Origin: an uncultured candidatus Porisulfidus sp.
GTDB taxonomy: Bacteria; Pseudomonadota; Gammaproteobacteria; Poriferisulfidales; Poriferisulfidaceae
Direction: 5' to 3'
Assembly: GCA_965116025.1 (NCBI GenBank)
Contig: OZ220480.1
Span: forward strand, 992,001 to 1,056,000
Length of the DNA: 64,000 nt
The notes under the pieces are model-generated. The model worked only from the letters and a program-made list of their open reading frames with translations. It made no database searches and had not been told where the DNA came from. A program made the position numbers and the translations under genes. This document shows, piece after piece, positions 11,868 through 48,444 of this stretch (position 1 is its first letter; each line of letters begins with the position of its first letter).

Positions 11868-14800
11868 ATGAAAGCCAGTCTTTCCGTTTCCAATATCATC
11901 CGCGCCGCGCTTCGCGGGGCTTCGTCGTCTTCCCGCATAGGGGGGGGGGGGGGGGGCATAGCCTCCATTTCCTGACCGTTCTGGCCGGATTCACGGCCAT
12001 TCTCGCGGTTCCGCACTCCGCCGTCGCGGTGAACGAGTGCGGCGCTACCAGCCCGGTCACCTGCGGCGACGCGAGTTACACCTCCACTAGCGACTCCCCG
12101 ATCAAGTATGAGAATCGGACCGGGGGGCTGACCTTGACCGTGAAGCCTTCCGGGGCGGGCACGGTCACCATCACTTCCAAGAAGCTTCCCGCGGACGATA
12201 CCGAGGAGTTCCCGGGGATCCACCTGGATGGGGAAGGCACCCTGAAAGTCGTTCTGGATGGCACCGTGAAAGTCGTGAACGGAGTGCCCCGAACGACGGT
12301 GGAGGCCACGTACGACGGAGAGAAGCAATCGTTCATTCGCCCGGAGCACAAGCGTGGTTCGCAAAACGACGGGGTGTACGTGGCGTACGACAAGGATGAC
12401 GACGCGGGGACAACGAAGGGCATGGTGGAGGTGATGGTGGGGAAGGGCGCGATGATCGGGAGCGCGACGGTGCCGGCGGGACGGTACGGGGTTCACGCCG
12501 CGTTCGTGGACGCGGACGGCGGCGGTTATCCGGCCGGGAAGCTCAAGGTGACGAACTCGGGGGAGATCTACGGTCATTTCGCGGGGATTTACGCGAAGCA
12601 CGACGGGGCGGGGGACATCGAGATCGAGACGTCGGAGGGGAGCGTGACGTCGATGGGGATCCGGGCGATCTCGAACAAGGCGAACCAAGCGGGTCGGGGC
12701 GGGAACGTCACGATTCGCCATCATGGCGCGATCATGGTGAAGAATCCGCCCCGGTACGCGGACGAGATCATGACGACGGGCGCGCTGACGACGGCCACGC
12801 CGGTGGAGATGGACAAAGTCAGCTTTGCCGACCGGCACCGAGCCGGGATCTACGTGGAGCATTGGGAAAAGGATGCGCCCACGGGCGCGAAGCCGAGCAG
12901 CTCGATCCTAGTCCAGTCGAGCGGTGATATCACCGCTTATGAGAACGGTAGCAAGGGCAGAAGCGCCATTTACGTCATCACGCGGGGAGCCTCCGGTTCC
13001 GTCGTGCCGGTCACGGTCGACGTGACGGGGGGCGTTCTGAGGGGGAGTGAATCGTTCGGGATTTACGTCTATCACGGGAACCACAAAGGCGGTTTGATCA
13101 AGGTGGACCTGGCGGGCGAGATCGCCCGGACGGGGAGCGGGATGAGGAACGGGAAGGATGGGATCGGGCTTTACCGGGGCTCCACGGTCGATCACGACGT
13201 CTCGGTTAATCGGGACATTGAGGTGACGCTGAGGTCCGGCGCGCGGATCGGAATGGAGGGAGACGAGCCGACCGTGGTCAGGGATGGCGTGAACGTTCGC
13301 CAGCAAGCGGACGGTGGGACGATCCGGGTGACCATCTCCGAGGGGGCGAGGATCGGGACTACGGGGACTCCGGTTGGCAGGCACGGCGTGTTCACTGATA
13401 CGGTCAACGCTGATGACGAGACTGACATCATGGTCACCAACGAAGGCTTCATCCACGCGAAGGGCTCGGGGATGGCCGCTTTGAATCTCGGTTGGGGCGA
13501 CGTGGTCGCGAAGCACTTGAAAGGCGAGATCGTCGTGGTCGACGCGCGCGATATCTTGGAATCCTTGATATCGGAGGATCACAAGCCGCAACTGGCGGAC
13601 CTGAAAGGCAGAACCGCCGGCGTTCTCGCCGTTCATGGGGGTGAGCGACCCCAAGCGGCTTCCGACGAGACGGCGGCCGACTATCGAGACCCTTCCACCT
13701 ACGAGGCCAAGATCGGGAAGATCGAGATCACGTCGAAAGCGGACATCACGTCGAAGGGCGACGGCATTCTCGCCTATGTGAAGGACTTGGACGACACGGC
13801 GGGGATACAGGGCATTGAGACGATCGTCCCGATCATGATCGATGTTTCAGGCGGAACGATCACGGCGGATGGGTATGGCGTGTACGCGGAGACGGCCACC
13901 ACCTACGAGGACGAGGACGCGCCGAAAGCCGGGAAGATTGAGGTCACGGTGGGAGAGATGGCGACGATCCGGGCCAAGAAGGATGGCGTTCACGTCAAGG
14001 GCAAGCGAACCTTCGCGTCCGACCACGCCCGGGCGGGTGAACACGACCAGACGGTCACGATCAACGGCAAGGTGATGGGCGGCGGTGGAGACCACGCCGG
14101 CGTTCGGATGGTGAACGGCGGGACGCTGGTGGTTGGGCCGAAGGCGAAGGTGGAGGCGGTGTCCGGGACCGCGGTGAGGTCGGACGGGGGGCTGACCATC
14201 ACCATGAAGAAGGACGCGGTCGGACGCATCGGCTACGTCAAGGGGAAGATGCTCAACAGTGGAACGACGACCTTCGATGGGGTGAAGGTGGGCGGGGAGT
14301 ACGCGCTCAGCCCGGGCCTCGAGACGCGCGGCGTGTACGACATTTCCAGAGTCACCCTGAAGACGATCGAGGGCGGGCACCAGTTCGAGGAGTCGGGTCG
14401 GGCGTATCACGCCCGGGCTCGGGTGTACGAGGCGTTGCCGTCGGTGCTGCTGGAGATGAGCGCGCCGGGCGGTCGTCAGGCGCGCTTGTCGGCGACGCGG
14501 GACGGCGCGGGCGTTTGGGCGCGGGTCATGGCGAGCGACGGCGAGCGCGAGGCGGATATGTCCACGACGGCGATGGACACGGCGGGGCATGATCTGTCTT
14601 GGGACTTCGAGCGCTGGGGCGTGGAGACGGGCATCGTCGTCCCCACGGACTTGCCGGGCGTGACGTTGGGCGCGAGCGCGCACTACCGTGACGGCGAGGC
14701 GGACGTCAAGCGTGGCGGGAAGATTGAGGTCTCGGGCGTGGGCGTGGGAGCTTCGGCGACCTGGCGGGGTGAGGACGGCTGGTACGCGGACGGGGAGCTC

Positions 14801-15310
14801 TCGTACACGCGTTTCGAGGACATTGATTTGAGTTCGGAGGCGCGTGGGATGGTGGCGTCCGGTCTGGACGGAGAGGGTCACGCGATCGGCGTGGAGGTCG
14901 GCAGGCGCATGGAGATGGACGGCTTCGCGCTGGTTCCGCGCGGGGGATTGACGTGGACTTGGGCGGACATTGACGGCTTCGACGACGTTTCGGGTGTCGA
15001 TGGGAGCGGTCAGGTGTCGTTCCGCTCCGAGGACAGCGTGCGCGCGCGGATCGGGGCGTTATTGGAGAACGGCCAGACGTACGCGTCATTGGACGTGGAG
15101 CGTGAGTTCTCGGAGAGTCGGGAGGCGATGGCGTCGGGAGCGCATCTGCGCTCGGAAGCGGAGTCCACGTGGGCGCGGATTGGCGTCGGGGGCGTGATGG
15201 TCTTGGATGAGAAGGGAGAGTCGACGCTCTCGGGGGACGCTCACTACGCGGCGTCGGATGGCGACAATCATGATTACGGCGCGAGCGTCCTGCTGAAGGT
15301 TCGCTTCTGA
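11868..15310 (+). CDS. Autotransporter (type Va) 1, frameshifted at a poly-G tract (phase-variable, OFF in this consensus)
   Basis: SD GAGGT + ATG 11868; G17 at 11940-11956; passenger ORF from 12029 with beta-helix-like repeats; C-terminal barrel (W.RV, LVPRGGLTW, terminal VRF). Confidence 0.85.
11940..11956 (+). repeat. Poly-G tract (G17)
   Basis: Counted directly; lies in signal-peptide coding region. Confidence 0.95.
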
Positions 15311-15321
15311 TGGGTTGTGAT

Positions 15322-15352
15322 CGCGGCCCCGGCGTTTCAAGCCGGGGCCGCG
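15322..15352 (+). terminator. GC-rich hairpin after autotransporter 1 (no U-tract)
   Basis: CGCGGCCCCGGC-gtttcaa-GCCGGGGCCGCG; homologous hairpin follows autotransporter 2. Confidence 0.55.
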
Positions 15353-15682
15353 TCAACCGCGCGCTTCGAAAGCCTTGGCGAGGCGCCAAGCCGCGGGCTC
15401 GCATGGTCGCGCGACCCAAACCGAGCATGATGGTCCGCTGTGAACTGATGACCGGGTTCCCCGACGCTATCACCGCCGTATCCGCTATCTGATCAGTTGG
15501 GCGCTACTCGGCCACTCGCTACTTTCGTCTCAACGCTGAGCTGACGCTCTCGTCAAGTCAGTGGAAAGGCGGCAATTGGGAAGCTGCCGAAGATCATCTG
15601 GGTTTTCAAGATTTTCTGATTCAGCGGTAGCGTTCGCGTCCGCGCGGAAATGTGGGTGCTCTTTCTCATGGCCTAAATGCCG

Positions 15683-16011
15683 TCACGTTTCACGTCGAGC
15701 TTTCTCTTCCAGCCCCGAGGTTCCGAAACGACGGCGCAATTCCTCTAGAACGTCGCGAGCGTCAAGGTCGCGCGAAGCTAGCAGGACCAAGGTGTGAAAC
15801 CACAGGTCCGCGACCTCATGCACGAGATGCTCGCGCTCGGCTTCGGCCGCCGCCACCGTCTCGGCCGCCTCTTCGGTGATTTTTGCCGTGATGGCGGGAG
15901 TTCCATCTCGATACAGCGCGGCGACGTAGGAGCGGTCGGGATCAGCCTCGCGGCGTTTCCGGAGCGTCTCCATCAATCGTTCCAAAACGCGTTCGGTATC
16001 GTCCGCTGAAT

Positions 16012-16015
<4 letters not shown>
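15683..16015 (-). CDS. hisE: Phosphoribosyl-ATP diphosphatase
   Basis: [35 protein letters not shown]. Confidence 0.92.
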
Positions 16016-16784
<769 letters not shown>

Positions 16785-16788
<4 letters not shown>

Positions 16789-17513
16789 GTGGCGGTCAGC
16801 GCCAGCGCCTGTTTGAGGTCAATGCTTCCTTCGTACAGGGCGCGCCCGATGATGGCGCCGCTGATGCCTTCGTCGGCGACGGCCTGAAGGGCCTTAATGT
16901 CGTCCAAGGCGCTAACGCCGCCGGACGCGATGATGGGAATGGGAAGGGCTTGGGCGAGCGCGACGGTGGATTCCACGTTGACCCCCTTCATCATGCCGTC
17001 CCGGCTGATGTCGGTGAAGATGATGGAAGCGACTCCTTCCTGAACGAAATGCTGGGCCAGATCGATGGCGTCGTGGTGGGACAGCTTGGACCAGCCGTCG
17101 GTGGCCACCTTGCCGTCCTTCGCGTCCAGCCCGACGATGATGTGGCCAGGGAATTCCAGGCATAGCTCTTCCACGAAATGGGGCTCGCGCACGGCGCGGG
17201 TGCCGATCACGGTGTAGCGGACCCCGATATCCAGATAGGTCTGGATGGCCTCCTCGCTTCGGATGCCGCCGCCGACCTGGATCGGGACGCCCGAGTGCTC
17301 CCGCGCGATTCGCTCAATGATCGAGATGTTGGCGGGCCGGCCTTCCCGGGCACCGTCCAGATCCACGATGTGCAGTCGTCGCGCGCCTTGGTCGATCCAG
17401 CGTCGCGCCATGCCGACGGGATCGTCCGAGAATATGGTCTCGTCGTCCATCCGCCCTTGGCGCAGGCGCACGCATCGCCCTTCCTTGATGTCGATCGCTG
17501 GGATGATTAGCAT
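16785..17513 (-). CDS. hisA: ProFAR isomerase
   Basis: [33 protein letters not shown]. Confidence 0.96.
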
Positions 17514-17533
17514 GGCGTGTCCGCCTCAAGGGC

Positions 17534-18172
17534 TCAGCGCCGCCCATCCCAGTGCAGAAAATTCCGCAACAACGTCAGGCCGTGCTCCCCGCTTTTCTCG
17601 GGGTGGCTCTGCATGGCGAACATTCGATTCTTGGCGACCGCCGAAGCGAATCGCACGACGTAGTCAGTGCGACCGACGATGGCTGCCTGGTCGCGCGGGG
17701 CCGTGTAGTAGCTATGCACGAAATAGAAATAACTGTGATCGGGAACGTCCTCCCACAGCGGATGGGGAGCCTGCCCGATGCGATTCCAGCCCATGTGCGG
17801 AATTTTGAATCCTTCGCCTTTCTCGACATGCGGAGCGAACGCTCGCGTTCCGCCAGCGAGCATCCCCAGGCAATCGACCCCGTCGTTTTCCTCGCTGTAT
17901 TCCATCAGAATCTGCATGCCCATGCAAATTCCGAGAAAGGGGCGGTCCCGGGCCGCGTTCCGAACCGCTTCGGCTAGGCCTTTCTCGCGCAGGGCGAGCA
18001 TGCAGTGCCGGGCGGCGCCTTGGCCCGGGAACACGACTCGGTCCGCTTGCTCAATGACCGAGGGCTCGGTCGCGACTCGAACGTCCGTGGAGGGGCCCGC
18101 CAGGCGGCATAGCGCGTTATGCACGGAACGGATATTGCCGAAACTGAAATCGACGATGGCGACGGTCTGCAT
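17534..18172 (-). CDS. hisH: Imidazole glycerol phosphate synthase subunit HisH
   Basis: FPGQG, GICMGMQ, PHMGWN, YFVHSY, HPEKSG. Confidence 0.95.
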   Translation of the reverse strand: MQTVAIVDFSFGNIRSVHNALCRLAGPSTDVRVATEPSVIEQADRVVFPGQGAARHCMLALREKGLAEAVRNAARDRPFLGICMGMQILMEYSEENDGVDCLGMLAGGTRAFAPHVEKGEGFKIPHMGWNRIGQAPHPLWEDVPDHSYFYFVHSYYTAPRDQAAIVGRTDYVVRFASAVAKNRMFAMQSHPEKSGEHGLTLLRNFLHWDGRR

Positions 18173-18193
18173 CGCGCGGCGGACAGTTCGTGG

Positions 18194-18784
18194 TTACAGC
18201 ACGCCTTTGGTCGAAGGGGTGCCGGTCTCCCGTGGATCCTGTTCCACGGCTATGCGCACGGCGCGGCCGAACGCCTTGAACGCGGTCTCGGCGATATGGT
18301 GGGCGTTGCTTCCGCGCAGGCCGTCGATATGCAGCGTGACCATGGCGTGGTTGGTGAATCCCTGAAAGAACTCGCGCACTAGATCTACGTCGAAATCCTG
18401 AATCCGAGCGCGCGGATACGGGACATGGTAGGTCAGGCCCGGGCGGCCGGAAAAATCGATGACGACCCGGGACAGCGCCTCGTCCAGAGGAACGTAGGCA
18501 TGACCGTAACGGCGGATGCCCTTCTTGTCGCCTAAAGCTTGTCGCGTGGCCTGGCCGAGCACGATGCCGATATCCTCGACGGTATGGTGCGCGTCGACCG
18601 AAAGGTCGCCGTCAGCTTGGACCTTGAGGTCCAGCAGGCCGTGGCGGGCGACCTGCTCCAGCATGTGCTCGAGAAAGGGGATTCCGGTCTGGAGGTCCGT
18701 TTGGCCGCTGCCGTCCAGATCGATCTCGATCTCGATCCGGGTCTCGCGGGTTTCGCGCTGAATGCGGGCGGTGCGGGCGCTCAT
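18194..18784 (-). CDS. hisB: Imidazoleglycerol-phosphate dehydratase
   Basis: [28 protein letters not shown]; start at ATG 18784. Confidence 0.95.
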
Positions 18785-18852
18785 TGGAGGGTGAAGAGAT
18801 ACGGCGCGACTCCGCGCCATTCTACTATGCTCGCGGCGGGGAGGAACTAAGC

Positions 18853-18928
18853 TGGCGCGCCCGGCAGGATTCGAACCTGCGACCCCTGGCTCCGGAGGCC
18901 AGTGCTCTATCCACTGAGCCACGGGCGC
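18853..18928 (-). tRNA. tRNA-Arg(CCG)
   Basis: GCGCCCGTGGCTCAGTGGATAGAGCA-CTGGC-CTCCGGA-GCCAG-GGGTCGCAGGTTCGAATCCTGC-CGGGCGCG-CCA; 76 nt cloverleaf with encoded CCA. Confidence 0.95.
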
Positions 18929-19056
18929 GTCACAGGGCAATTATAGTGTCTCTTCCAAAGGTTCGCCCAATTCAACGCATATGCCGGAGGCGGCAAGATG
19001 TTTCCGGTCTGCTACAATTCCCCCGCGCATTTCACTTATCAAAAGAGGTGACCCAG

Positions 19057-22000
19057 ATGAAAGCGAGTCTTTCCGTTTCCAATATCGTCCGCGCCGCGCT
19101 TCGCGGGGCTCCGTCGTCTTCCCGCATAGGGGGGGGGGGGGGGGGGGGCATAGCCTCCGTTTCCTGACCGTTCTGGCCGGATTCACGGCCTTTCTCGCGG
19201 TTCCGCACTCCGCCGTCGCGGTGAACGAGTGCGGCGCTACCAGCCCGGTCACCTGCGGCGACGCGAGTTACGCCTCCACCAGCGATTCCCCGATCAAGTA
19301 TCAGGATAAGACCGGGGGTCTGACCTTGACCGTGAAGCCTTCCGGGGCGGGCACGGTCACCATCACCGCCGAGGCGCTTCCCACGAGCGCGAGCGACGCG
19401 TTCCCGGGGATCCATCTGAACGGACACGGAACCCTGAAAGTCCTTTTGGATGGCGCCGTGAAAGTCGTGAACGGGGCGACCCGGACGACGGTGGACGCGA
19501 CGCTCGCGGGCGAGACGGGGACTTTCAAGTTCATCCACCCGGATCACAAGCTGGGCTCGCGGAACGACGGGGTGTACGTGGCGTACGACAAGGATGACGA
19601 CGCGGGGACAACGACGGGCATGGTGGAGGTGATGGTGGGGAAGGACGCCGTGATCGGGAGCGAGACGGCGCCGGCGGGACGGTACGGGGTTCACGCCGCG
19701 TTCGTGGACGGGGACAGCGCCAACGCGAACTATCCAGCCGGGAAGATCAAGGTGACGAACGCGGGCATGGTGCATGGCCACTACGCGGGGATTTACGCGA
19801 AGCACGACGGGAAGGGCGACATCGAGATCGAGACGTTGGAGGGGAGCGTGACGTCGATGGGGATTCGGGCGATCTCGAATAAAGCTGACAAGGCGGATCG
19901 GGGCGGGAATATCGCCATTCGCCATCATGGCCGGATCGTGGTCAAGGATCCGGCTCGGTACGCGGACACGCTGACGATGGCGAACGTGGCCACGCCGCTG
20001 GAGATGGATAAAGTCAGCTTCTCCGACCGGCACAGAGGAGGGATCTACGTGGAGCATTGGGAAAAGCGGACGCCGACGGGCGCGAAGCCCAGCAGCTCGA
20101 TCCTGGTCGAGTCGAGCGGCGACATCGTCGCCCATCCGATCCACGGCAAAGAAGGCGACAACAGAGCGAGAAGAAGCGCCATTTACGTCATCACGCGGGG
20201 GAACGGTGATTCCGTCGTTCCGGTCACGGTCGACGTGACGGGGGGCACCCTGACGGCGGACGACCCGAGTGGAAGAAATGGAGGGAATGGGATTTACATC
20301 TATTACTCTCAGCACAAAGGCGGTTTGATCAAGGTGGATCTCGCCGGCGAGATTTCACGGACGGGAGACATAAGAGATGGAATCTTTATTGAGAGACAAT
20401 ATGACGACGATAGCGACGATTCCAGTGATGTCAGCAGGGACATAGAGGTGACGCTGAAATCCGGGGCGCGGATCGGCATGGAGGGAGACGAGCCTACCGT
20501 GGGTCGGCGTGGCGTGTCGGTGACCCAGTCGACCAGCGGGGGAACGGTTCGGGTGGCTGTGGAGTCCGGGGCGCGGATCGGAACCGCGGGGACTCCGGTC
20601 GGCGAGAACGGGGTGGTCGCCGAGATCAGCAACGCCGATGACGAGAACGACATCATGGTCACCAATGAGGGCCACATCCACGCGAAGGGCTCGGGGGTGG
20701 TCGCCCTGCATCGCGGCTGGGGTGCCGTGGTCGTGCAGCATCTGGCGGGGGAGATCGTCGCGGGCGACCAGCCTAACGCCTTCTCCTCGCTCATAGAGGA
20801 TCACCAGACGGAGTTGGCGGACCTGAAGTCCCGGACCGCTGGCGTTTCCGCCATTCATGGGGGTTCGGAGCCCAAGCCGCTTCCCGGCAAGAATATCATC
20901 ATTAGCGATCCCTCCACCTACGAGTCCGATATCGGGGAGATCAAGATCACGTCGAAGGCGGACGTCACGTCGAAGGGCGACGGCATTCTCGCTTACGTGA
21001 AAGACCTGGACGATGTGGGGGCCAGGAGCCCCAAGGTGAGAGTGCCGATCACGATCGACGTGGCCGGCGGGACGATCACGGCGGACGGCCACGGCGTCTA
21101 CGCGGAGACGGCCACCATCTACCAGGGTACCTACGCGAATACGGAGATCACCTACGACGATGCCACCAAGGCCGGGAAGATCGAGGTCACGGTGGGGGAG
21201 ATGGCGACGATCCGGGCCAAGAAGGACGGGGTGCATGTCAAGGGGATGCGGACCTTCGCGTCCGACCACGCCCGGAAAGGGCAATATGACCAGACGGTCA
21301 CGATCAACGGCAAGGTGATGGGCGGTGGTGGAGACCACGCCGGCGTTCGGATGGTGAACGGCGGGACGCTGGTGATCGGGCCGAAGGCGGAGATCGGCGC
21401 GACGTCGGGGACCGCGGTGAGCGCGGACAAGGCGCTGCATGTCACCCTGAAGGAGAACGCGCATGGGCAGATCGCGTTCGTCATGGGGAAATTCCTGAAT
21501 AGTGGAAAGGACGCGCCGAACGTCTTCCAGCGGGAGTTGATGGCCGGCGCGAAGAAGATGATCGCCGTGGGGGACGCGGTGAAGGCGACGTCGGGTAAGA
21601 CGGGGACGCATGGGGTGTATGACGCGGTGTTCGAGCGGATGGTCACGCTGAAGTCGATCGCGGGCGGGCACCAGTTCCAGGTGGACTCGGAGAAGGAGAT
21701 CAGCCGGACGTATCACGCCCGGGCTCGGGTGTACGAGGCGCTGCCGTCGGTGCTGCTGGAGATGAGCGCTCCGGGCGGCCGTCAGGCGCGTTTGTCGGCG
21801 ACGCGAGACGGCGGGGGCGCGTGGGCGCGGGTGTTGGCGAGCGACGGCGAGCGGGAGGTGGAGACATCCACGACCGAGATGGACGATGCGGGTCGCGCGC
21901 TGTCTTGGGACTTCGAGCGCTGGGGCGTGGAGACGGGCTTCGTCGTTCCTACGGACGCGCCGGGGCTGATGCTGGGCGTGAGCGCGCATTACCGGGACGG

Positions 22001-22616
22001 CGAGGCGGACGTCGCGCGTGGCGGGAAGATCGAGGTCTCGGGCGTTGGCGTGGGCGCTTCGGCGACCTGGCGGGGGGAGGACGGCTGGTACGCGGACGGG
22101 GAGCTCTCGTACACGCGGTTCGAGGATGTCGACTTGAGCTCGGAGACTCGGGGGATGGTGGCGTCCGGTCTGGACGGAGACGGCCACGCGATCAGCGTGG
22201 AGGTCGGCAGGCGCATGGATATGGACGGCTTCGCGCTGGTTCCGCGCGGGGGATTGACGTGGACCTGGGTGGACGTCGACGGCTTTGACGACGTGTCGGG
22301 CGTTATTGGAAGCGGTCGAGCGTCGTTCCGCTCGGAGGACAGCGTGCGGGCGCGGGTTGGAGCGCTGCTGGAGAATGGCCAGACGTACGCCTCATTGGAC
22401 GTGGAGCGCGAGTTCTCGGAGAGCCGGGAGGTCATGGCGTCGGGGTCGCGCTTGCGCTCGGAGGCGGAGTCCACGTGGGCGCGAGTTGGTGTCGGGGGCG
22501 TGATGGTCTTGGATGATAAAGGGGAGTCGACGCTATCGGGGGACGCTCACTACGCGGCGTCGGACGGCGACAATCATGATTACGGCGCGAGCGTCCTGCT
22601 GAAGGTTCGCTTCTGA
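19057..22616 (+). CDS. Autotransporter (type Va) 2, paralogue of autotransporter 1, frameshifted at a poly-G tract (OFF in this consensus)
   Basis: Same GAGGTGACCCAGATG start; G20 at 19129-19148; ATG frame stops at 19167; passenger and barrel ending VRF lie in another frame. Confidence 0.85.
19129..19148 (+). repeat. Poly-G tract (G20)
   Basis: Counted directly. Confidence 0.95.
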
Positions 22617-22629
22617 CCGGCTTTCTGAT

Positions 22630-22659
22630 CGCGGCCCCGGCATGCGCGCCGGGGTCGCG
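22630..22659 (+). terminator. GC-rich hairpin after autotransporter 2 (no U-tract)
   Basis: CGCGGCCCCGGC-atgcgc-GCCGGGGTCGCG. Confidence 0.55.
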
Positions 22660-22819
22660 TCAATTAGCGCGTTCGAAAATTTAGGCGAGGCGCTTGGCGC
22701 GTCAGCCGAAAAACCTTGGTGTGAAGCCCGCCGAAGTCACGTGGCGGGACTGGATTTTGGATCGGCGTTCCTCTTATGTTCTACAATCTATCTCCCTCAC
22801 CTATCGCGACCAGGTTCCC

Positions 22820-25717: not shown

Positions 25718-25824
25718 ACGCGACCGTTGGGCGGAAAGAGACGTTATGCCCGGGAGATTCGGGAGCGGAAGGCGGGATCGTCGCTGGAGCACCAAGATGT
25801 ATCCCGCGAGTCGGGCGAGCTTCC

Positions 25825-26262
25825 ATGATCGCCTTGCTTCAGCGCGTGACCGAGGCCCGAGTCGTCATCGGCGGGCGAGTCGTGGCGGATGTGGACGCTG
25901 GGGTCCTGGTTTTGGTCGGCTTCCACAAAGGGGATTCACCAGAGCGGACCGAGCGGATGGCCGAGCGAATCCTGGGCTATCGCCTGTTCGCCGACGAGAA
26001 CGGAAAAATGAATCGCTCTCTGGTCGACGCGCGGGGCGAGTTGCTCTTGGTTCCGCAGTTCACGCTCGTGGCCGCCACCGACCAAGGCATGCGCGCGAGC
26101 TTCAGCTCCGCCGCGCCGCCGGAGGCCGGGCGCGAGCTTTTCGAGAGTCTTCGCGAGGCGTGCCTGCGGCGGCACGACCAGATTCAAGTTGGGAAGTTCG
26201 GGGCCGACATGGAGGTCCACCTGGTCAACGATGGGCCGGTCACCTTCATCTTGCGCGATTGA
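25825..26262 (+). CDS. dtd: D-aminoacyl-tRNA deacylase
   Basis: LLQRV, GKMNRS, VPQFTL, G.FGADM.V.LVNDGPVT. Confidence 0.93.
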   Translation: MIALLQRVTEARVVIGGRVVADVDAGVLVLVGFHKGDSPERTERMAERILGYRLFADENGKMNRSLVDARGELLLVPQFTLVAATDQGMRASFSSAAPPEAGRELFESLREACLRRHDQIQVGKFGADMEVHLVNDGPVTFILRD

Positions 26263-27172: not shown

Positions 27173-27176
27173 CCAG

Positions 27177-38335: not shown

Positions 38336-38390
38336 GGGGTTTCAGGCGACTGGCTCTATGGCCGCGCGCGACCGTCATGATTCTCGCGCT

Positions 38391-39659: not shown

Positions 39660-39683
39660 CTCATCACATTTCGGAGAGCCGTC

Positions 39684-40043
39684 ATTTCCGACCACCAGTT
39701 TGAGTTGCGGGACGAGGACGTTCAAGGAGCGCTCGTGATCAGCGTGGCTGGTCGCGTTGATGGCGTGAACGCCCAATCTTTCCAGGAAAGCCTGAATCAG
39801 AAGGCGGACAATTCCAGCGACAGTCAGGCGATCATTCTCGACCTGGAAAGCTTGTCCTACATCAGTAGCGCGGGGTTGCGCGCGATCTTGCTTATCGCCA
39901 AAACGCTCAAGAGCAAGCGCGTGAAGTTCGCGATGTGCTCTCTGCCGGATCCCATAATGGAGATTATCCAGATCACCGGCTTTGACAAGATCATAGACAT
40001 ACATGAGTCGCGCCCAGCGGCGGTCACGGCGACGACCGGATAA
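39684..40043 (+). CDS. STAS domain anti-sigma factor antagonist (RsbV/SpoIIAA-like) 1
   Basis: GRVDG.NA, LSYISSAGLR, ITGFD; start probably ATT 39684 (otherwise TTG 39705). Confidence 0.88.
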   Translation: MSDHQFELRDEDVQGALVISVAGRVDGVNAQSFQESLNQKADNSSDSQAIILDLESLSYISSAGLRAILLIAKTLKSKRVKFAMCSLPDPIMEIIQITGFDKIIDIHESRPAAVTATTG

Positions 40044-40128
40044 ATAACGCCCGTAGAGCGTTGCCAGCGAGCCGGTCACGTCATGCCGCGTTGGCGCGCG
40101 GAGTGGATTTGATGCTTGGAGGCATCGG

Positions 40129-40488
40129 GTGGTTTCTGAGGCTCAATTCGAACTGAAAAGCGAGGAGCGCGGAAGCGCGCTCGTCATTAGCGTGACCGGA
40201 CGGGTGGACGGAATGAACGCCTTCCAATTCCGGGATTCCCTGGAGCGCGGCGTCCAAAGCCATGATGGTTCCGCCGTCGTTCTGGATATGCGGAGTTTGT
40301 CCTATATCAGCAGCGCGGGGTTACGAGCGGTCTTGCTCGTCGCCGAGGCGCTGGGTCGCCAGAGCAAAAAACTCGCGGTGTGCTCGTTGTCCAAATCCAC
40401 CATGGAAGTGATCCAGGCGACCGGTTTCGACAGCATTATCGATGTCTACGTCTCCCGCTCCTCCGCGGTCGACGCGGTCACGCGGTAG
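40129..40488 (+). CDS. STAS domain anti-sigma factor antagonist 2
   Basis: SD GGAGG + GTG; LSYISSAGLR; tandem paralogue of STAS 1. Confidence 0.9.
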   Translation: MVSEAQFELKSEERGSALVISVTGRVDGMNAFQFRDSLERGVQSHDGSAVVLDMRSLSYISSAGLRAVLLVAEALGRQSKKLAVCSLSKSTMEVIQATGFDSIIDVYVSRSSAVDAVTR

Positions 40489-40579
40489 GCGGGCGGCAGG
40501 GGAGCGCGCCTCCCGCTGGTGATCGATCGCGTCCGAAGCTTTTGGGATCGCGTTCGAGGGGAAAGAATGAACTGGCCGC

Positions 40580-43078
40580 TCAGGCGCTCTTCGGGGAGGC
40601 GTCTTCTTTCGTGGCGTTCGTATCGGATTCTGGCGTGCCAGAATCCGCCTTCGAAGCGTTGGTGGAAAGGTTTTCGGGAGGCTTGAGCGGTAGAGAGACG
40701 ATCATGTCGGTGTGTTCGCCCTCTTTAGTGTCCACGCGGAGCTCGCCGCCATGTTCCCGGATGATGTCGCTGGATAGGGACAAACCGAGGCCCGTGCCCT
40801 TGTCCGGCGGTTTCGTCGTGAAGAACGGGTCGAAAATTTTCTTCAGCGCGGACTCCGGTATGCCATTTCCATTGTCTCGAACGTGGACCTCGAGAAACCC
40901 CTCGACCACCTTCGTGCTGAGTTGGAGCCTCGGCCAATAGGCTTTCGCGCGATCCTTGTCCTCCGCCACTAAGGCTTTCCGCTTCTCGTCGGTCGCGTAG
41001 CACGCGTTGGTCACCAGATTCAGAAAGACCCGGCCCAGGTTTTGCGGCTTCACCAGAAGCTTTTCGACATCTTTCGCGTAGTCTTCCTGGATCTCGAGCT
41101 GGAAATCGGGGTCGGCGGCGCGGGAACTGTGGAACGCGAGCATGGCATGCTGGTGCAGTAGCGCGCTGATGTCGGTGGGCTGCCAGTCTCCCGAATCGTG
41201 CCGGCCCATCTTGAGCATGTCCATGACGATTCGGTTGGCGCGCTCGCCATGCTCCTGGATGCGCCCCAGGTTTCCGGTCAGGTCTTGGGCGATCTCGTTG
41301 ACCAATTCCGCGTCGTACTCTTCCGTGGCTTCCGCGCCGGGCTTGTTTTTCGCCACCTCCTCCAGCAACTCTTCCAGCAAGTCTTTCGAGACCTGGGCGA
41401 AGTTCATGATGAAGTTCATGGGGTTCTTGATCTCGTGCGCGACCCCCGCGGTCAGCTGGCCGAGGGCCGCGAGTTTTTCCTGCATGACGACCTGATCTTG
41501 CGCGCTTTTCAGCTTCTCGTTCGCTTGCTCCAGGTCCTCGTACATCTCTTTCAGCTCGTCCGCCAATTGCTCGACGAGGCTCAGGCGCTGCACTTCCAGC
41601 GCGTTTTGCCGAAAGACCTCCAGCGCCTTGGCCAACTCTCCGATCTCGTCGTTTCCAGACACCTCGATGGGCGTTTCCAGCTTGCCGCCGGCGACGCTCC
41701 GAATCTGCTGGGAAATGGCGTCCAAGCGCCGGACCAGGCGCCGTTCCACGAAAAGCCATCCGATCAGGATCGCGCCCGTGATGCTGATAATGTTGATGAT
41801 CAGCAGCAGCGTCGAGCTTGTTCTGGTGATCTCGGCGGCTCTCTCCGCCATTTTTTGCGCGGTCAGACTGTATTCGCCCACGATGCCTTCCACGATCGCG
41901 ACGATGTCCACTCCCAGGGCCTGACTGTCGCGAAGCAATGAGGAGAGTTCTTCCTTGACGGCAAGATTTCGGCCATGAAGATCGAAGCCGTTTCCCTCCT
42001 CGCGGCCGATCGAGAGCATGCTCGAGAAGGATTCCGACAGGTCGCCATGTCTGGGGTGTTCCGACAGGGCGTCCAAAGAGCGGTTGGCGAGGCCGACCGT
42101 GGCCTCGAAGTTCTCTTGGAGCGGCCGTAGCATGGCCGCGTCGCTGACCGTGAACACGGTCGCGAGCAACTGGGTGGTCAGCGTGGCGGCCTCCCGCAAC
42201 TCCACCAGGTGCCGATAGGTCTGGAACTCCACTTCGGAGAAATGCGTCGCGCGGCGCGCGCGCTTGTCGTCCAGATCCCAATATCCCGTGATCGTGTAGA
42301 ACAGCTGATCGTCGATCTCGCGAAGCAGGATGGTCATCAACTGATCGTGCGCCAGATGCAGCTCCTTCGTCAGCGCGGCGGTGCGTTGGCGGAGATCGAA
42401 CCGCTCTCGAACCAGCGTCTTGATGCGCTCGATATTCTTGATGATGCCGGCTCCATCAACCTGGATTTTTCGCGCGCGCTCGTCGTTCTCTCGCTTCCTT
42501 AACATCGCCGTGAGCCCGTCCTCGAACGCCCGCTCCTGCGCCGACACCGATGCCGAGACATCCTCGAATTGCTGGATCGTGACCGCGGTCGCGAGCTGAG
42601 GGGCCGCCGCGACCAAGGTGGCCGTTTGCTGGGCGACGGTGAACGCCGCCTGCATTTCCGGCACGCTCTTCTCGCTGATGTCGTGCTGAACGGTGTTGAT
42701 GTGGTCGAGGACGAATATGGTGAGGATGCTGATGGTGATCACCAGCGCCACGGCGCCTCCGAAACTGATATGGAGCTGCGTCGAGATCCGGTTCCAGATT
42801 TTCGGAAACCGGCCGAAGAGCCGCGAGCGTCCGAGCTTCTGCGAGGTCTGGTTGACCAGGGAGAGAGCTTTCTCCAACCCGAAGCGAAGTCGCGGCGAGA
42901 GCCGTTCCCAAGCGCTTCGTAGCCTGCCAGCCATCCGCGTTCTCGCGAGCTTTTCCAAAGCTTGGCCGATCGCCGAGAGCGCGCTCTTCAGCCCCGCGCG
43001 AAGCCGCGATGAGGTCCGTGCCCAGGCCTCTCGCAGCGTGCGGAGCGTCTTGGCTCCCACGAGCTTCTCAATCTTCAT
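40580..43078 (-). CDS. Membrane sensor histidine kinase with large helical (TorS-like) periplasmic domain, HAMP, HisKA and HATPase
   Basis: Two TMs; GNDEIGELA (HAMP); AGVAHEIKNP; NLVTNA, DNGNGI, FDPFFTTK, GTGLGL. Confidence 0.88.
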   Translation of the reverse strand: MKIEKLVGAKTLRTLREAWARTSSRLRAGLKSALSAIGQALEKLARTRMAGRLRSAWERLSPRLRFGLEKALSLVNQTSQKLGRSRLFGRFPKIWNRISTQLHISFGGAVALVITISILTIFVLDHINTVQHDISEKSVPEMQAAFTVAQQTATLVAAAPQLATAVTIQQFEDVSASVSAQERAFEDGLTAMLRKRENDERARKIQVDGAGIIKNIERIKTLVRERFDLRQRTAALTKELHLAHDQLMTILLREIDDQLFYTITGYWDLDDKRARRATHFSEVEFQTYRHLVELREAATLTTQLLATVFTVSDAAMLRPLQENFEATVGLANRSLDALSEHPRHGDLSESFSSMLSIGREEGNGFDLHGRNLAVKEELSSLLRDSQALGVDIVAIVEGIVGEYSLTAQKMAERAAEITRTSSTLLLIINIISITGAILIGWLFVERRLVRRLDAISQQIRSVAGGKLETPIEVSGNDEIGELAKALEVFRQNALEVQRLSLVEQLADELKEMYEDLEQANEKLKSAQDQVVMQEKLAALGQLTAGVAHEIKNPMNFIMNFAQVSKDLLEELLEEVAKNKPGAEATEEYDAELVNEIAQDLTGNLGRIQEHGERANRIVMDMLKMGRHDSGDWQPTDISALLHQHAMLAFHSSRAADPDFQLEIQEDYAKDVEKLLVKPQNLGRVFLNLVTNACYATDEKRKALVAEDKDRAKAYWPRLQLSTKVVEGFLEVHVRDNGNGIPESALKKIFDPFFTTKPPDKGTGLGLSLSSDIIREHGGELRVDTKEGEHTDMIVSLPLKPPENLSTNASKADSGTPESDTNATKEDASPKSA

Positions 43079-44286
43079 CGCTTGGAGGGCAAGGTGACGA
43101 GCGGCATGTATCGGCCATCGTTTCCGATCGCCGTGAGGAACACGCTGTCCGATCCCTGGTTATCGCGCTCCCCGAATCGAAGGGCGAATCCGTCCAGGTC
43201 GATGGGATCTCCGCTTTTCAGGGCCACGTGGACGCACTCCCGCTCGACCCGCTCGCCGCAACGCCGCAGCGCCTGAATCGCGAGCCGACCCGCCAGGTAA
43301 CCCTCGAACGAAATGAAGCCGGGCTCGATAGATGGGTCATGCGCTTTCAGCGCGAAGCGGTAGGCGCGGGAGACCGGCATGGAGTCGCCCGTCGGGAAGG
43401 GAACCACTTGGGTGACCAAGACTCCGGCCCCCTCGGGCCCCAACTCTCTCGCCAGGGCGTTGCTGCCGACGAAGGAGAGCGTCATGAACACCGGGTCCAT
43501 GTCAAGGAGCCGCGCCCATTTGATGAACGTGGCGGCGGGCTTGTAGGGGCCGACGATGATGATCGCCTCCGGTTTCTTCGCCCGCAAGTCCAGCAGGGCC
43601 GTCTTAACGGCGATGGTGTTGCGGACGAACACGCCCATGCCGACCGGGGAGATCTGCCGGCGCTCCAGGGCGCGAAGAACGCCCCGCAGTCCGGCGAGGC
43701 CGAAGGAATCGTCCTGATAGAGAATGGCGATGCGCTGAATGTCCAGATCGGTGGTCAGCCGCTCCACCATCTCCTCGGTCTCTTGGTAGTACGAGGCGCG
43801 CAGGTTGATGACGGTATGGCGCGCGCTATCGCGCAAGAATTCCGCGCCAGTCATGGGAGCGATATAGGGAATTCCGCTCTCTTCCGTGACCGGCACCACC
43901 GCCCGGGAGGTCGGGGTGCCGACCGCCCCGATCAGCGCGAAGACGTCTTCCACGATCAATCGCCGGGTATTGGCGATGGCCGCGTCCGGCTCGTAGGAAT
44001 CGTTCAGGGAACGCAGATCGAGCCGGCGCCCGTGAATTCCCCCTTGGCGGTTGATTTCCTGAAAGGCTGCTTGGATACCGGCGCGCATGCTGATGCCGAG
44101 CTCCCGGGCCGGGCCTTCGAAGGCGGCGGATTGTCCGAACAGGATTCGATCCTCGAACACGCCGGGCGTGGCTGATGGCTCGTTCGAGGAGCTTCGCTCG
44201 CTTTGGGCGAAGGCCGCGCCGGTCAGGATCGCGGCCCAAAAAGCCGCGAGCATGCGCGTTAAGAAAAGCCCTCGCGAGGCCGGCAC
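43075..44286 (-). CDS. Periplasmic solute-binding protein (type I, LIV-like), no transporter genes nearby
   Basis: Signal peptide; ILFGQSAAFEGP, GGIHGR, DSYEP, GAVGTPT, LRASY.QE, SFEGYLAG. Confidence 0.85.
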   Translation of the reverse strand: MPASRGLFLTRMLAAFWAAILTGAAFAQSERSSSNEPSATPGVFEDRILFGQSAAFEGPARELGISMRAGIQAAFQEINRQGGIHGRRLDLRSLNDSYEPDAAIANTRRLIVEDVFALIGAVGTPTSRAVVPVTEESGIPYIAPMTGAEFLRDSARHTVINLRASYYQETEEMVERLTTDLDIQRIAILYQDDSFGLAGLRGVLRALERRQISPVGMGVFVRNTIAVKTALLDLRAKKPEAIIIVGPYKPAATFIKWARLLDMDPVFMTLSFVGSNALARELGPEGAGVLVTQVVPFPTGDSMPVSRAYRFALKAHDPSIEPGFISFEGYLAGRLAIQALRRCGERVERECVHVALKSGDPIDLDGFALRFGERDNQGSDSVFLTAIGNDGRYMPLVTLPSKR

Positions 44287-44290
44287 GTCG

Positions 44291-44707
44291 CTAGAGGTCC
44301 TTGATCATGATGAGATGGTTCCGGCCATCGTCCCGGTGATAGCGCAGGTCCGTCATCATGGTTTTGGCCAGCGCGATTCCCGCGCCCCCGACCCTGCGCT
44401 CCTCCAGCTCGCTTTCCGCGTCCATTTTTGGCGCCTCTCGCAACGGGTCGAAGGGGCGGCCGTCGTCGATGATCTCGATGGTCACGGCGTTCCCGTTTTT
44501 GGAGAGCGCGATCTCTATCTCGTGCTTGGCGTCATCGTCGTATCCGTAGCTGATGACGTTGGTGAATATCTCTTCCAGCGAGAGACGAAGCTGGAACAAC
44601 GCTTCGGAGGGAAGGTCCTGCCGCTCGCAGAACTCGGTCAAGAACTTCTCGATCGTTCGAATTTCCTCAATGCGATTGGGAACGGTCAAAGCGCGCGAGG
44701 ATGCCAT
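44291..44707 (-). CDS. Anti-sigma factor Ser/Thr kinase (RsbW/SpoIIAB-like)
   Basis: LEEIFTNVISYG, DDGRPFDP, GGAGI, Y.RDDGRN. Confidence 0.9.
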   Translation of the reverse strand: MASSRALTVPNRIEEIRTIEKFLTEFCERQDLPSEALFQLRLSLEEIFTNVISYGYDDDAKHEIEIALSKNGNAVTIEIIDDGRPFDPLREAPKMDAESELEERRVGGAGIALAKTMMTDLRYHRDDGRNHLIMIKDL

Positions 44708-44726
44708 CTTCTCGACCTCGCCAGCC

Positions 44727-45902
44727 TCACCCCGGAATCTTAAGAGTCAGGCAGGTGATATCGTCGGATTGCGGACTGTCGCCGGCGAAGTCGCCGACGG
44801 CGTCGAACACGGCTTCCGTCGCCTGCTTGGCGCTCTCGAAAGACCGATCCTTGAAGATCTGGCGAAATCGGTCCATCTCGAACATCTCGCCATCCTCTCG
44901 CTCCGCCTCCGACACTCCATCGGTGTACAGCACGACCATGGAGCCGGGCTCCAGAGTGATCGTTTCTTCCTGGAATGGAAAGCTCTCCTCGATGCCGAGC
45001 GCGATTCCGCCAGTGGATTCCAGCAGGTTCACCGAGGAGTCCGGGTGGACGACGATGGGCAGGTTGTGCCCGGCGTTCGAGTAGACGAAATTCCTCGTTT
45101 CGGGATCATAGATGCCGTATAGCAGGGTCACGAAAGTCATGGCGTCGTTGTTCTCGGACAGCATTTGGTTCACCTGTCCTAGCACTTGGGACGGGGAAAC
45201 CGAGCAAAACGCGCAGGCTTTCAGCAAGGTGCGGCTGGCCATCATGAACATGGCGGCCGGGACCCCTTTGTCCGACACGTCGGCGATGATGACCCCCAGC
45301 CGGCCATTGCCCAAGTCGTAGATGTCGTAGAAATCGCCGCCAACGGAGCGAGCCGCCACCATATGGGCGTGGACGTCGTACTTTTCCGTCGTCGGGAAGG
45401 TGGTTGGAAGGATGTTCTGCTGCATCTGCTGCGCCACGCTCAGCTCGTGCTGGACCGCGACGAGCTTGTCGCGCGAGCTCAACGCGTCCCGCCACATGAG
45501 AAGGTTCTCGATGGTCCGCTCCACCGTCATCTTGAGGTCCGAGAAATCGATCGGCTTGGTCACGAAATCGAACGCTCCGCGATTCATCGCGGTCCGGATG
45601 TTCTCCATGTCGCCGTAGGCGGACACCATCACGGCGCGGATGTTGGGGTCGACGTCCGGGATTTGCTCCAGCATCGTCAGGCCATCCATCACCGGCATGT
45701 TGATGTCGGACAGGACGATGTCGAAATCGTTGTCCGCGCGCAGGCGCTCCAGAGCTTCCGCGCCGTTGTGCGCGAACTCGAAGATGTAGCGTCCGTGCCT
45801 GACCTCTCTGCGCATCTGCTGCAGCATGAGATGCTCCAGATCCACCTCGTCGTCGACGACCAGGATCTTGACCTTGGCGTTCTTGAGCTTATCGTTATCC
45901 AT
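44727..45902 (-). CDS. Receiver domain + PP2C phosphatase (RsbU/SpoIIE-like)
   Basis: ILVVDDE, SDINMP.MDG (REC); GGDFYD, DVSDKG, NAGH, LYTDG, DDIT (PP2C). Confidence 0.92.
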   Translation of the reverse strand: MDNDKLKNAKVKILVVDDEVDLEHLMLQQMRREVRHGRYIFEFAHNGAEALERLRADNDFDIVLSDINMPVMDGLTMLEQIPDVDPNIRAVMVSAYGDMENIRTAMNRGAFDFVTKPIDFSDLKMTVERTIENLLMWRDALSSRDKLVAVQHELSVAQQMQQNILPTTFPTTEKYDVHAHMVAARSVGGDFYDIYDLGNGRLGVIIADVSDKGVPAAMFMMASRTLLKACAFCSVSPSQVLGQVNQMLSENNDAMTFVTLLYGIYDPETRNFVYSNAGHNLPIVVHPDSSVNLLESTGGIALGIEESFPFQEETITLEPGSMVVLYTDGVSEAEREDGEMFEMDRFRQIFKDRSFESAKQATEAVFDAVGDFAGDSPQSDDITCLTLKIPG

Positions 45903-46151
45903 TCAGTACCTCATTTCCAAACTCCGTTTCATTCCGAGACGGGAGGAATTCTCCCACGCCAAGACTCTTGAGCGTCAACAATCTATAAGGGCACTTTATT
46001 AAGGTGTCAAGGCGAGTATCTAAGGCTTATTCTAGCGTATCTCCTCTTGATCTCGTTCATGGTTCACGGGGAGGATTGGACCGTATTCGGATATTAACTC
46101 ACGTTTTGCGCTGTGATTGCAGTATAGTTGGTGCGGTGGCTGGCAGACATC

Positions 46152-48444
46152 CTAATCGGTGTCGTTTAGCGGGGCTTCATAGTCTTGGCTGTATTGTTTC
46201 AATAGAAAGTCTATTTGCGCCTTTTTCGCCTCTGCTTCTTTTTGAATTCTAGAAATTTCTGACGACAACTTTTGTAATGAAGTCAAGTCTTCTGGAACTG
46301 GCTTGGGAATTAGAACATCTAAAATTTGATGCTTTGTGAAAGTTTCTCTACCCACCAGATCTGTGGGAATTAATTGCCTTGGAAATTCTTTTCTCATCGC
46401 TCGAATCAAGTATTCAACAGGAACAACATCGTCCTTAATCTTTGCAACAAGTTGCGAGGTGCATGTGTAATAATCGTTCGAAATGGCGAAAAGACCATTG
46501 CCATTATTTGTGTGTAAAGTCCCAATAATAAGATCACCCGGCTCAGCAATTATTTTTTGGGATCCCCTAATATTTTTTCCTAATCTACGATTCCCTCTGA
46601 TTTTCACCGTGTTATTCTGGCTGTCCAAACTCGGTTCCGCGTAATACTTATCAGGGTTAAGGGAAGTTGCTTTTTCTTTGATTTCCAGTAAATTCCTTAA
46701 ACGCCAACATTCTCCTGCAGCATTAATAATTTTTTCGAATTCAATGAATGCCCCCCCCCCCCCCCCCCCCCCACTGCATCTTAATAGCACCTGGCAACAT
46801 TTCTAACTCGCTATCAGTTGCAAATTCAAGAATTTTAGGAATATCATTTTCTGGAATGGGTTCTCTGTTTTTATCCTGCGACATCCCATCTGCCTTTATG
46901 TGAACGAATGTAAATTCGCTTGTGTTTGCACGGTGAATATTATCAAGAATCAGAACCGCAGTTTGTGCTGTTGTGTAAAAAACGAAAGTCTTTTCAGGAA
47001 GCCGAATGCAGGCTCTGATATTACTTTTGTTTGCGATATATTCCCGAAGTTTCCTGTATTTGTCAGCATGACATAAAGTCAGTGGCAATACTATTGCAGC
47101 TGACCCCCCCGGTTTGATAGATTCAACACATTTAACGACACATAACTCATTCCAATCATCGCCTTCGAGGCCGCTCTTCTCGATAAATTGGAGCATTTGC
47201 TCTTTATCAATAGGGGCATCAATGTTGAAGGGTATGTTTGTTATCAACTTGTCATATTTCTTCCATTCTTGTCTTTTGAAACTGTCCCCTCGTTCAATAT
47301 TACTTTGGCCATCGCCCAGAAGAATCATATTCATTTTTGCAAGGCCAGAGGTGCTGTTGCTAATATCATTGCCATAAAGGGTGCTGTTCCTCAACTCCTC
47401 TAGCTTCTGATCAAATTTTGGGCTTGTGCTGTCCAGCCCCATTTTTATATCAAAGTAACAAGAAATCAGCATTCCACCTGTGCCGCAAAATGGATCAAGG
47501 ATCTTGTCTCCTGGCTGTGGATTCAACAGGTTTGACATCATAGATGTGATGTGCCTAGGCGTGAAGTACTGACCCAAAGCACTTTTATTTCCAATACTAT
47601 ATTTGGACAAGAAAAACTCGAATGCCTCTCCTTTAATATCAATGCCACTATTCGTAAAGTTGATGGGGTTGACCCGGTCCACAAGACTTTCCAAGATTTC
47701 AGGGTTATTAATTTCTGATCCCGAAAATATTTCCCCATACTCATCTCGATAGCCCTGCAGAACTTTTTTGTATATGTCAATGAGACCTTTCCCGCTTGCA
47801 CGTGAAATTTTTCCCCAATTCTGCTGGGCAGGACGGTTGCCGCGTTCAGCCATGATCTTAATAAAGAGCAACACGCAAAATTCCCTTAATTGATTAATGC
47901 CGGCATCAATACCGTCTCTACGCATAGAGTCGGCGGCCTCGGAGAAAATATCAATTAACGAATTTACGCTATCAATCACTTCACCTTGTGAAGCTGACGG
48001 TGATTGCACGAGTTCCTGCATCACATCCAATGGCGGAATGTAGTTGACCGGGTAGTTGTTCAAAGTCAAGTCTGATCCATCAGCATGCCTTGATCGCACC
48101 TGTATTCCGTCCGAGGCAAAAACCACCATAGGGGGGCTTTCATTAGCATAAGCGACTTTCGCATATTCTGTTGCTTGATCAAGAGCGTCATCAAGTTTTA
48201 TTCCCATTTTTTTGGCTTCTAAAAATGCGATCGGTTTAGATGAGCGGGGCCCATAAAAATGGTAATCCGGCCTTTTTCCGGCCTTCCGCAATCTGGATTT
48301 CATGAGCTCGTCACAGATTGCGCCCTCAAGTCTCACGAACGCATCATCAACACTTGAATTTGTTAATTTGAATCCGGCAGACTCAATCATTGAGTTTATG
48401 CGTATCCGCGCATGCGCCTCATTAGTACTCATCTTTGACTCCAA
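46152..48444 (-). CDS. Type IIG-like endonuclease-methyltransferase-specificity fusion, frameshifted at poly-G (phase-variable, OFF in this consensus)
   Basis: HsdR_N-like RPDY...FLEAKK; GQYFTP, DPFCGTGG, NIPF; after G22 an HsdS/TRD-like ORF continues in another frame; visibly AT-rich. Confidence 0.8.
46751..46772 (-). repeat. Poly-G tract (G22 on coding strand)
   Basis: 22 C on + strand, counted directly. Confidence 0.95.

Follow-up and report, generated by a model that had tools for sequence, protein, structure and literature searches.

Why are three genes lying within 64,000 nucleotides of one bacterial genome each interrupted by a very long run of G, and could such runs switch these genes on and off? 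The question is raised by positions 992,001 to 1,056,000 of contig OZ220480.1, from an uncultured candidatus Porisulfidus sp. (this whole stretch is called the window, and coordinates without a prefix refer to it), in which two autotransporter genes and a restriction–modification (R-M) gene are out of frame as assembled. Our analysis suggests that these runs, with many others in the same genome, are most likely simple-sequence contingency loci at which slipped-strand mispairing would produce phase variation, and that they are best read as a variant of a known mechanism, with longer tracts and a large gene family, in a group where it was not expected. The three window runs had been noticed in a sequence-only reading, and they are where that reading placed them: G17 at 11940–11956, G20 at 19129–19148 and C22 at 46751–46772, that is, G22 on the minus strand. 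No other run in the window exceeds 8 bases and the next longest G/C run has 7, so that the claim that no other G/C run is of comparable length holds. On the coding strand all three consist of G followed by CAT. Each breaks the frame of its gene at what had been called a functional hinge, the signal peptide in the two autotransporter genes and the linker between methylase and specificity domain in the R-M gene, a placement borne out for the latter by intact homologues.

The conserved start codon of autotransporter 1 (ATG 11868, plus strand) stands behind a GAGG ribosome-binding site and opens a 24-codon leader common to 24 paralogues (11868–11939); beyond the run, a body of 1117 codons (11957–15310) comprises a hydrophobic signal region ending A-V-A, a beta-rich passenger and a C-terminal barrel (PF03797, E=1.4e-24). 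Autotransporter 2, on the same strand, likewise has 24 codons before its run (19057–19128, ATG 19057 behind AAGAGG) and a body of 1155 codons after it (19149–22616). In both genes the run thus lies between the ATG with its ribosome-binding site and the hydrophobic part of an extended signal peptide, and in both it is one base short of frame as assembled, an OFF state with products of 35 and 36 residues, respectively. Open reading frame callers present autotransporter 2 as intact because an unconserved ATG at 18981, upstream, happens to be in frame with it. The R-M gene, on the minus strand, starts at ATG 48432 and not at the TTG at 48444; its first 553 codons (46773–48432) encode a weak HSDR_N nuclease region and an N6-adenine methyltransferase, and the run that follows is one base too long, also an OFF state, leaving out of frame the 198 codons of the specificity (target-recognition) domain (46152–46748; 61% identity to residues 565–750 of the fused homologue P0005). 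A frame test of the window loci and their paralogues shows that run length sets the reading frame and that off-frames end early; a length that is a multiple of three restores the frame at all three window loci, as the sequence-only reading had it. The two autotransporter runs are paralogous copies and do not count as independent events.

The same design extends far beyond the window. The genome (G000) is a single closed contig of 2,018,984 bases with 62.7% GC, and it carries 45 G/C runs of 15–39 nt, with a median of 22 and none of 9–14. Up to length 8, run counts drop about six-fold per added base, and extrapolating this decay predicts 2.5e-5 runs of at least 15 genome-wide. The proposal of a poly-G system in surface and defence genes thus stands, although its scale is 45 loci and not three. 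Twenty-four of the 45 runs lie in one family of autotransporters (family A), to which both window genes belong, always with G on the coding strand, and six in a second family (family B) with C on the coding strand, two members of which were scanned and have fibronectin-III domains. Eight lie within or just ahead of genes for defence or DNA modification (type ISP, an Eco57I-like IIG enzyme, a type III methylase, an ATPase cassette, GmrSD, DndC, DUF499 and the window R-M gene), three in a glycosyltransferase region and two in type I secretion or RTX (repeats-in-toxin) genes; by our own sorting, 43 of 45 fall into surface, secretion, glycan or defence classes, and the remaining two are unassigned. 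Conversely, of the 32 autotransporter hits that Pfam gives in G000, 30 start with a run at their 5' end; the two that do not are a divergent member of family A, whose leader is uninterrupted, and a weak match of 260 residues. Random placement is therefore refuted, since the runs are concentrated at autotransporter 5' ends and in defence genes.

Not every regularity of the window runs is general. Coding-strand G holds for all three of them, but six family-B genes carry C and two runs sit in promoter spacers. A strand bias, proposed for checking together with the runs, was rejected: the leading strand carries the G in 32 of 45 runs, a share that does not exceed the background (490/648). The shared CAT was found partly to reflect paralogy and partly to be a real feature, as the run is followed by CAT at 5 of 18 independent G000 loci (1.4% in the background) and by CA at 8 of 18 (5.4% in the background, p=2e-6); CA follows 20 of 59 runs across the genus, but neither CA nor CAT is enriched in G044, a relative in family f3. 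At one of the defence loci (G000:C1:604700-608700, L107), a type III-like methylase is split by a DDE_3 transposase and also has an in-frame C23 run.

Family A is a single mosaic family of 24 run-bearing members, with runs of 16–27 nt. Its barrels are 86–92% identical between copies and its passengers 45–63%, with mosaic blocks; in window gene 2, about 400 residues (approximately 100–500) are 94–100% identical to one copy (G000:738458) while the N-terminus is nearest to a third. As assembled, 4 members are in frame, 9 at +1 and 11 at -1, which does not differ from an even spread over three frames (chi-square p=0.20), and none of the 24 bodies (889–1166 codons) has an internal stop. In-frame alleles were thus found among paralogues, and also in another genome: P0143 (48% identical) has a glycine run at the same site, in frame, while P0135 (60% identical, also from another genome) has one at the same site behind an apparently out-of-frame leader. 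Window gene 1 (G17) and its paralogue G000:631630 (G23) have no mismatch in 120 flanking bases, which indicates that the run changes faster than its flanks do by point mutation; a second paralogue pair shows C18 against C19 with 2 flank mismatches.

These properties bear on the idea that the runs simply expand, one way, in a drifting host-restricted genome, and that the copies are young pseudogenes or silent recombination donors. That 20 of 24 family-A genes are out of frame, that the family is mosaic in the manner of a donor pool, and that the R-M gene is a dispensable insert would all agree with it. We nevertheless consider decay extremely improbable, because no stops have accumulated in the 24 bodies, the runs avoid housekeeping genes, the same position is used in other genomes, and the MutS and MutL frames of G000 are intact. 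The latter observation also rules out lost mismatch repair as the cause of the runs. MutS was found as well in the relatives G006, G015 and G044 and in four of five genomes outside the order. Two small low-GC relatives of family f2 (G016 and G019) have no MutS match and no G/C run of at least 9.

Both window downstream frames end in an autotransporter barrel according to Pfam. In a structure model of autotransporter 1 with a mean pLDDT (predicted local distance difference test score) of 78.9, the passenger is built of short strands that repeat, and the C-terminal barrel has the EspP, Hbp, BrkA and AIDA-I barrels as its best fold matches. With PF03797, these barrel matches, a terminal Phe and a signal peptide judged by eye, they have the traits of type Va autotransporters. 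The passenger has no Pfam domain and its fold matches pertactin and tailspikes weakly (E about 1e-4). An adhesin role for the passenger is therefore plausible, and the window autotransporters are candidate adhesins. The passenger was not found in 51 of 52 other genomes of the order, with a weak match in one, and exact family-A flank patterns gave no match in the genome contig or metagenome contig collections. A sigma-70 promoter scan of 11400–26200 returned none for either window autotransporter. In two family-A genes (G000:C1:545783 and 756392) an ATG or TTG stands in frame two bases beyond the run and is followed by a complete signal peptide; at these loci the run might be a ribosome-binding element and not a frame switch. 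Giant autotransporter frames of 9,644 and 12,365 codons occur at G000:C1:137569 and G010:C1:557861.

Are the runs and their lengths real? Long homopolymers are a weak point of long-read consensus, and one could propose that the frameshifts are consensus errors, all genes being in frame in vivo and the runs encoding poly-glycine or poly-proline linkers. The gene bodies are intact and no read-level variation was seen, both of which would fit. Amplified low-input HiFi libraries, described in one sponge metagenome paper (PMC12988363), could add noise where used. Several observations make this explanation very unlikely. A de Bruijn contig (X1), which spans 40000–57500 at identical length without a gap, repeats the C22 and hence has the same out-of-frame length at the R-M run; it is a second assembly and not a second sample, as X1 is probably the source of this DNA. 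This contig-level comparison covered the R-M run, which has unique flanks, and contigs drop rare variants. The family-A states spread over three frames and do not centre on one. Selection for a linker should leave a mixture of GGN codons, and those R-M homologues that are intact do without such a run. Finally, a linker explains neither the runs in promoter spacers nor those right after a start codon. Runs at the same or nearby sites in homologous genes of different species also differ in length (C20/C19, G16/G15/G14, C16/C17). Recurrent placement in separate assemblies, filled promoter spacers, the X1 length and the length differences between homologues together argue that the long runs exist in vivo.

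The promoter-spacer runs deserve separate consideration. In front of an RTX gene the sequence reads TTGACA, a 15-nt run and TATACT, and in front of GmrSD it reads TTGACA, a 21-nt run and TATAAT (G000:C1:789208 and 772596, respectively; L110, L109); G000 contains just four TTGACA...TATA(A/C)T pairs, these two among them. A working promoter spacer measures 16–18 nt, and since here the run makes up the spacer, the working run lengths should be close to this, at around 16–17 nt. That two runs fill consensus promoter spacers suggests that the long runs are probably functional. Similar run-filled spacers are seen in G030 (L005) and G006 (L168). The longest run, of 39 nt (G000:C1:97045-97083, L102), is near the 3' end of a glycosyltransferase; the opposite strand reads TTGAAA, 40 nt, TAGAAT, a possible antisense promoter or a chance occurrence.

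The promoter-spacer runs also weigh on a different functional reading, in which the runs are selected as leaky tuners: slippage of RNA polymerase or of the ribosome would give some in-frame product from every allele, at a lower level, with a G-quadruplex as an added brake. The runs are far longer than is needed for switching elsewhere (mode 9), and although no more than 4 of the 24 genes of family A are in frame, all 24 bodies are free of internal stops. The floor of 15 nt seen in G000 and G015 equals the shortest G run for a three-tier quadruplex, and transcriptional slippage on homopolymers has been reported, but it is known mainly for A/T runs. Runs in promoter spacers work only through DNA length. 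Moreover, a single RNA structure is hard to reconcile with a coding strand that carries G in family A and C in both family B and G044. The floor itself is specific to G000 and G015, because other genus members have many runs of 9–14 (G006 has 40 runs of at least 9, only 4 of them of at least 15), which rules out a universal 15-nt floor. We therefore find leaky tuning unlikely, and phase variation by slippage continues to account for the runs better.

The two HisF sequences nearest to that of G000 are 91% identical to it, one being labelled Ca. Porisulfidus from a sponge, and a second Porisulfidus sequence is 79% identical; the genus has been called a known sponge symbiont (PMC12988363). The nearest named relatives being sponge symbionts, the hint of a host-associated lifestyle given in the sequence-only reading gains support. 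Among 46 autotransporters in seven single-contig genus genomes (a set from which a G015 hit containing an internal stop and a duplicated G008 hit were excluded), 26 have a run of at least 9 within 700 bp of the 5' end, while 20,000 random placements give a mean of 0.69 and a maximum of 6. Runs of at least 9 are present in all 15 other genus genomes and in all 19 genomes of family f3, and in none of the 18 of families f2 and f4; the sampled DNA of these two families has 27–37% GC, and because of this low GC we do not use their lack of runs as evidence on lifestyle. In G005 and G007, runs located where a contig ends were regarded as possible artefacts. Within family f3, G044 has 90 G/C runs, and visual inspection of 46 shows that 44 are C runs lying a few codons into genes for secreted proteins; in particular, L211–L224 are mostly poly-C about 8 codons into a large family of secreted immunoglobulin-like or cysteine-rich proteins.

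Outside the order, 6 of 298 sampled gammaproteobacterial genomes have at least 20 runs of at least 15. In four of them (G062, G114, G314 and G328) the sampled runs head surface proteins or sit in R-M or glycan genes, least clearly in G114; this check covered 9–20 loci per genome, and runs of this kind have a better chance of surviving in a long-read assembly. Judged on sequence, the same apparent long-run design recurs in four other gammaproteobacterial families. Of the other two genomes, G176 (25 runs; L304–L312) was dropped since its runs are in non-coding low-complexity DNA on small contigs, resembling eukaryotic contamination, and G334 (20 runs) was left out of the locus check, its listed runs being clustered or near contig ends. 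A family of membrane proteins of about 440 residues with no Pfam hit, each with a 5' poly-C run, is encoded in G328 (L315, L320–L322, L328).

The R-M gene has 42% GC over its whole length, against about 62% for the genome, and a close match (E<=1e-30) is found in none of the 15 other genus genomes and in 2 of 37 other genomes of the order, in agreement with the proposal that it is an AT-rich acquired gene; no confirmed relative of the protein was found in the metagenome contig collection. Among the homologues, one is named from Ca. Poribacteria. The majority of the top-ranking homologues are fused single chains of 740–755 residues that span both window pieces, with a nuclease, an N6-methylase and a specificity domain in one chain. 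Ahead of the specificity domain they have a short G-containing linker (e.g. Y-S-x-G-G-S), without a long run, in the place occupied by the run in the window. The methylase match is strong (N6_Mtase, E=1.5e-44) and that of HSDR_N is below the curated cut-off (E=0.003); many homologues carry PF04313, and the specificity-domain region of homologues gives weak Methylase_S matches. PADLOC assigned MTase_I and REase_MTase_IIG, with type I methylase models ranked above IIG models. On these grounds we file it as a putative type-IIG-like single-chain enzyme with a weak nuclease match. P0002, P0042 and P0053 end just past a stretch of Gly at approximately this hinge, and glycine runs occur elsewhere in the chain in other homologues, suggesting that this family acquires runs repeatedly. 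A G7 run on the minus strand at 47104–47110, inside the gene, lies where P0036 and P0040 have glycine runs, and is possibly a second, weaker slippage site.

The site of the R-M gene appears to be a swappable slot, since the run X2 data give no cover over the gene and a contig of run X3 joins 45945 to 48500 with 1,772 other bases between. X3 comes from a more distant relative, containing 0.06 of the autotransporter words, and for this reason says nothing on tract length. A second swappable slot is indicated by a contig of X3 in which 693 other bases link 53931 to 57323, and a methylase and SfiI-like endonuclease pair without a long run lies at 53949–55638 (plus strand). Autotransporter 2 is followed by a gene of 1007 codons (22694–25717, plus strand) with methylase-like motifs and no significant Pfam match; the two genes make up an insert of about 6.9 kb next to tRNA-Arg(CCG), which occupies 18853–18928, and in relatives (L021, L022) this tRNA gene adjoins a region matching 25822 onward. 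An Rfam search found tRNA alone.

How would the system work? Replication slippage would change run length, presumably reversibly. For the autotransporters, one length in three encodes the full protein and the other two lead to a stop within a few codons; for the R-M gene, two lengths in three encode an enzyme without its DNA-recognition domain, an OFF state that, by analogy with Cj0031 of Campylobacter jejuni, presumably loses both methylation and restriction. Most of the 45 loci would act by frameshift and two by promoter spacing. Cells within a population might then differ in which of about 30 autotransporters and of about 8 defence systems they show, with phages and sponge cell recognition or phagocytosis as the likely selective agents. 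In support of slipped-strand phase variation, the runs exceed chance, they are placed in particular genes, frame depends on their length, and homologous loci differ in length; non-random placement, in-frame alleles and the accessory AT-rich R-M gene likewise favour the contingency-locus inference drawn from the sequence alone.

Several observations weigh on the other side. In-frame family-A alleles (4/24) are slightly under one third (p=0.059), and the in-frame ATG or TTG right after the run in two paralogues could bypass the switch. X1, the only contig that crosses a window run, shows no variant of the C22, the repeat itself being skipped in the comparison. Consensus lengths of long homopolymers can be off by one or two bases, which makes each ON/OFF call uncertain. 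Host association comes from named relatives (HisF 91% identical) and not from the G000 record. In meningococcal reporters, switching was no higher beyond G10, and G11 and G13 were lower, so that longer need not mean faster; in the same reporters mismatch repair no longer mattered at G10–G13, and repair escape alone would therefore not require 22 bases (PMC4085013). A broader proposal is that several unrelated mismatch-repair-proficient symbiont lineages have converged on an ultra-long homopolymer regime, which would serve as a per-cell surface and epigenetic barcode in an antibody-less host. In this proposal the runs would be unstable enough to bring every locus near frame equilibrium within one host, each cell having a random subset of the autotransporters (24 choose 8 gives about 7 x 10^5 for family A alone) and of the defence systems, and the 15-nt floor and CA context would mark a threshold, such as repair escape or quadruplex folding, letting runs arise fast in newly acquired genes. 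We hold this proposal as a tentative and rather doubtful one.

Compared with known systems, the mechanism is familiar and the lengths and family size are not. Copies of the Neisseria opa genes recombine. Like family A, they form a dispersed surface family in which each copy has its own repeat switch, with 11 copies per strain (PMC5320596), but the repeats are CTTCT pentamers in small beta-barrel proteins, whereas here mononucleotide runs control autotransporters of about 1,100 residues in twice as many copies. In Neisseria pilC1/pilC2 (poly-G) and the autotransporter genes nalP/mspA (poly-C), a 5' coding homopolymer in a surface protein gene leaves one frame in three ON (PMC5320596, PMC3723659). 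Their tracts are shorter (pilC G9–G15; nalP C6–C15, mode 10; mspA C6–C14, mode 9) and concern one or two genes each (PMC5320596, PMC3723659), whereas G000 has 16–27 nt in the 24 paralogues of family A, to which six of family B are added. In the fetA and porA promoters a homopolymer between the -35 and -10 boxes changes expression, but it is part of the spacer (C10–C14; PMC5320596), and at G000:789208 and 772596 the run fills all or nearly all of it. Campylobacter jejuni also has dozens of poly-G/C loci in surface, glycan and R-M genes. Campylobacter is, however, a low-GC genus that is not known to have functional mismatch repair, unlike the present genome with its approximately 63% GC and intact MutS and MutL. 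Campylobacter tracts have a mode of 9–10, with 13–15 rare (PMC3401435, PMC6321876), against a median of 22 here. The type IIG enzyme Cj0031 is split by a G9 with conserved domains on either side, and other homologues lack the run (PMC4889913), as in the window R-M gene, which belongs to a different, smaller family (about 750 residues) with a type-I-like methylase and one specificity domain. Helicobacter mustelae, with its Hsr proteins, likewise combines a small genome and a host-associated life with numerous autotransporters whose passengers vary through recombination, but there are ten genes with cassettes moving into an expression site, and the accessible part of that work reports no family-wide homopolymer switch (PMC2846917).

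Most descriptions of homopolymer phase variation come from vertebrate pathogens and commensals, where selection by antibodies is a frequent explanation; if relatives of sponge symbionts have a system of 45 loci, agents other than antibodies, such as phage, phagocytosis and host recognition, would have to be considered. We found no paper on such runs in sponge symbionts in what was mostly open literature, supplements apart, which may list such loci, and in the accessible text of a 2025 review neither 'marine' nor 'symbiont' occurs (PMC11868660). Surface and defence repertoires of symbionts are probably under-annotated, because assemblies from short reads break at these runs and gene callers tend to cut the genes short or place their starts wrongly. 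The lengths called extreme in the sequence-only reading call for a nuance, as single gonococcal runs of 19–20 G are known in lgtA and pgtA (PMC5320596), but the whole distribution is shifted here to about twice the usual length, the main Neisseria species having a mode of 9–10 and 15–19 runs per genome (PMC5953494). A median of 22 nt conflicts with the idea of a mutational bias holding G runs near 9–10. Thus, while the mechanism itself is known from Neisseria and Campylobacter, what is new here is the shift of the whole length distribution together with the large family on which it acts.

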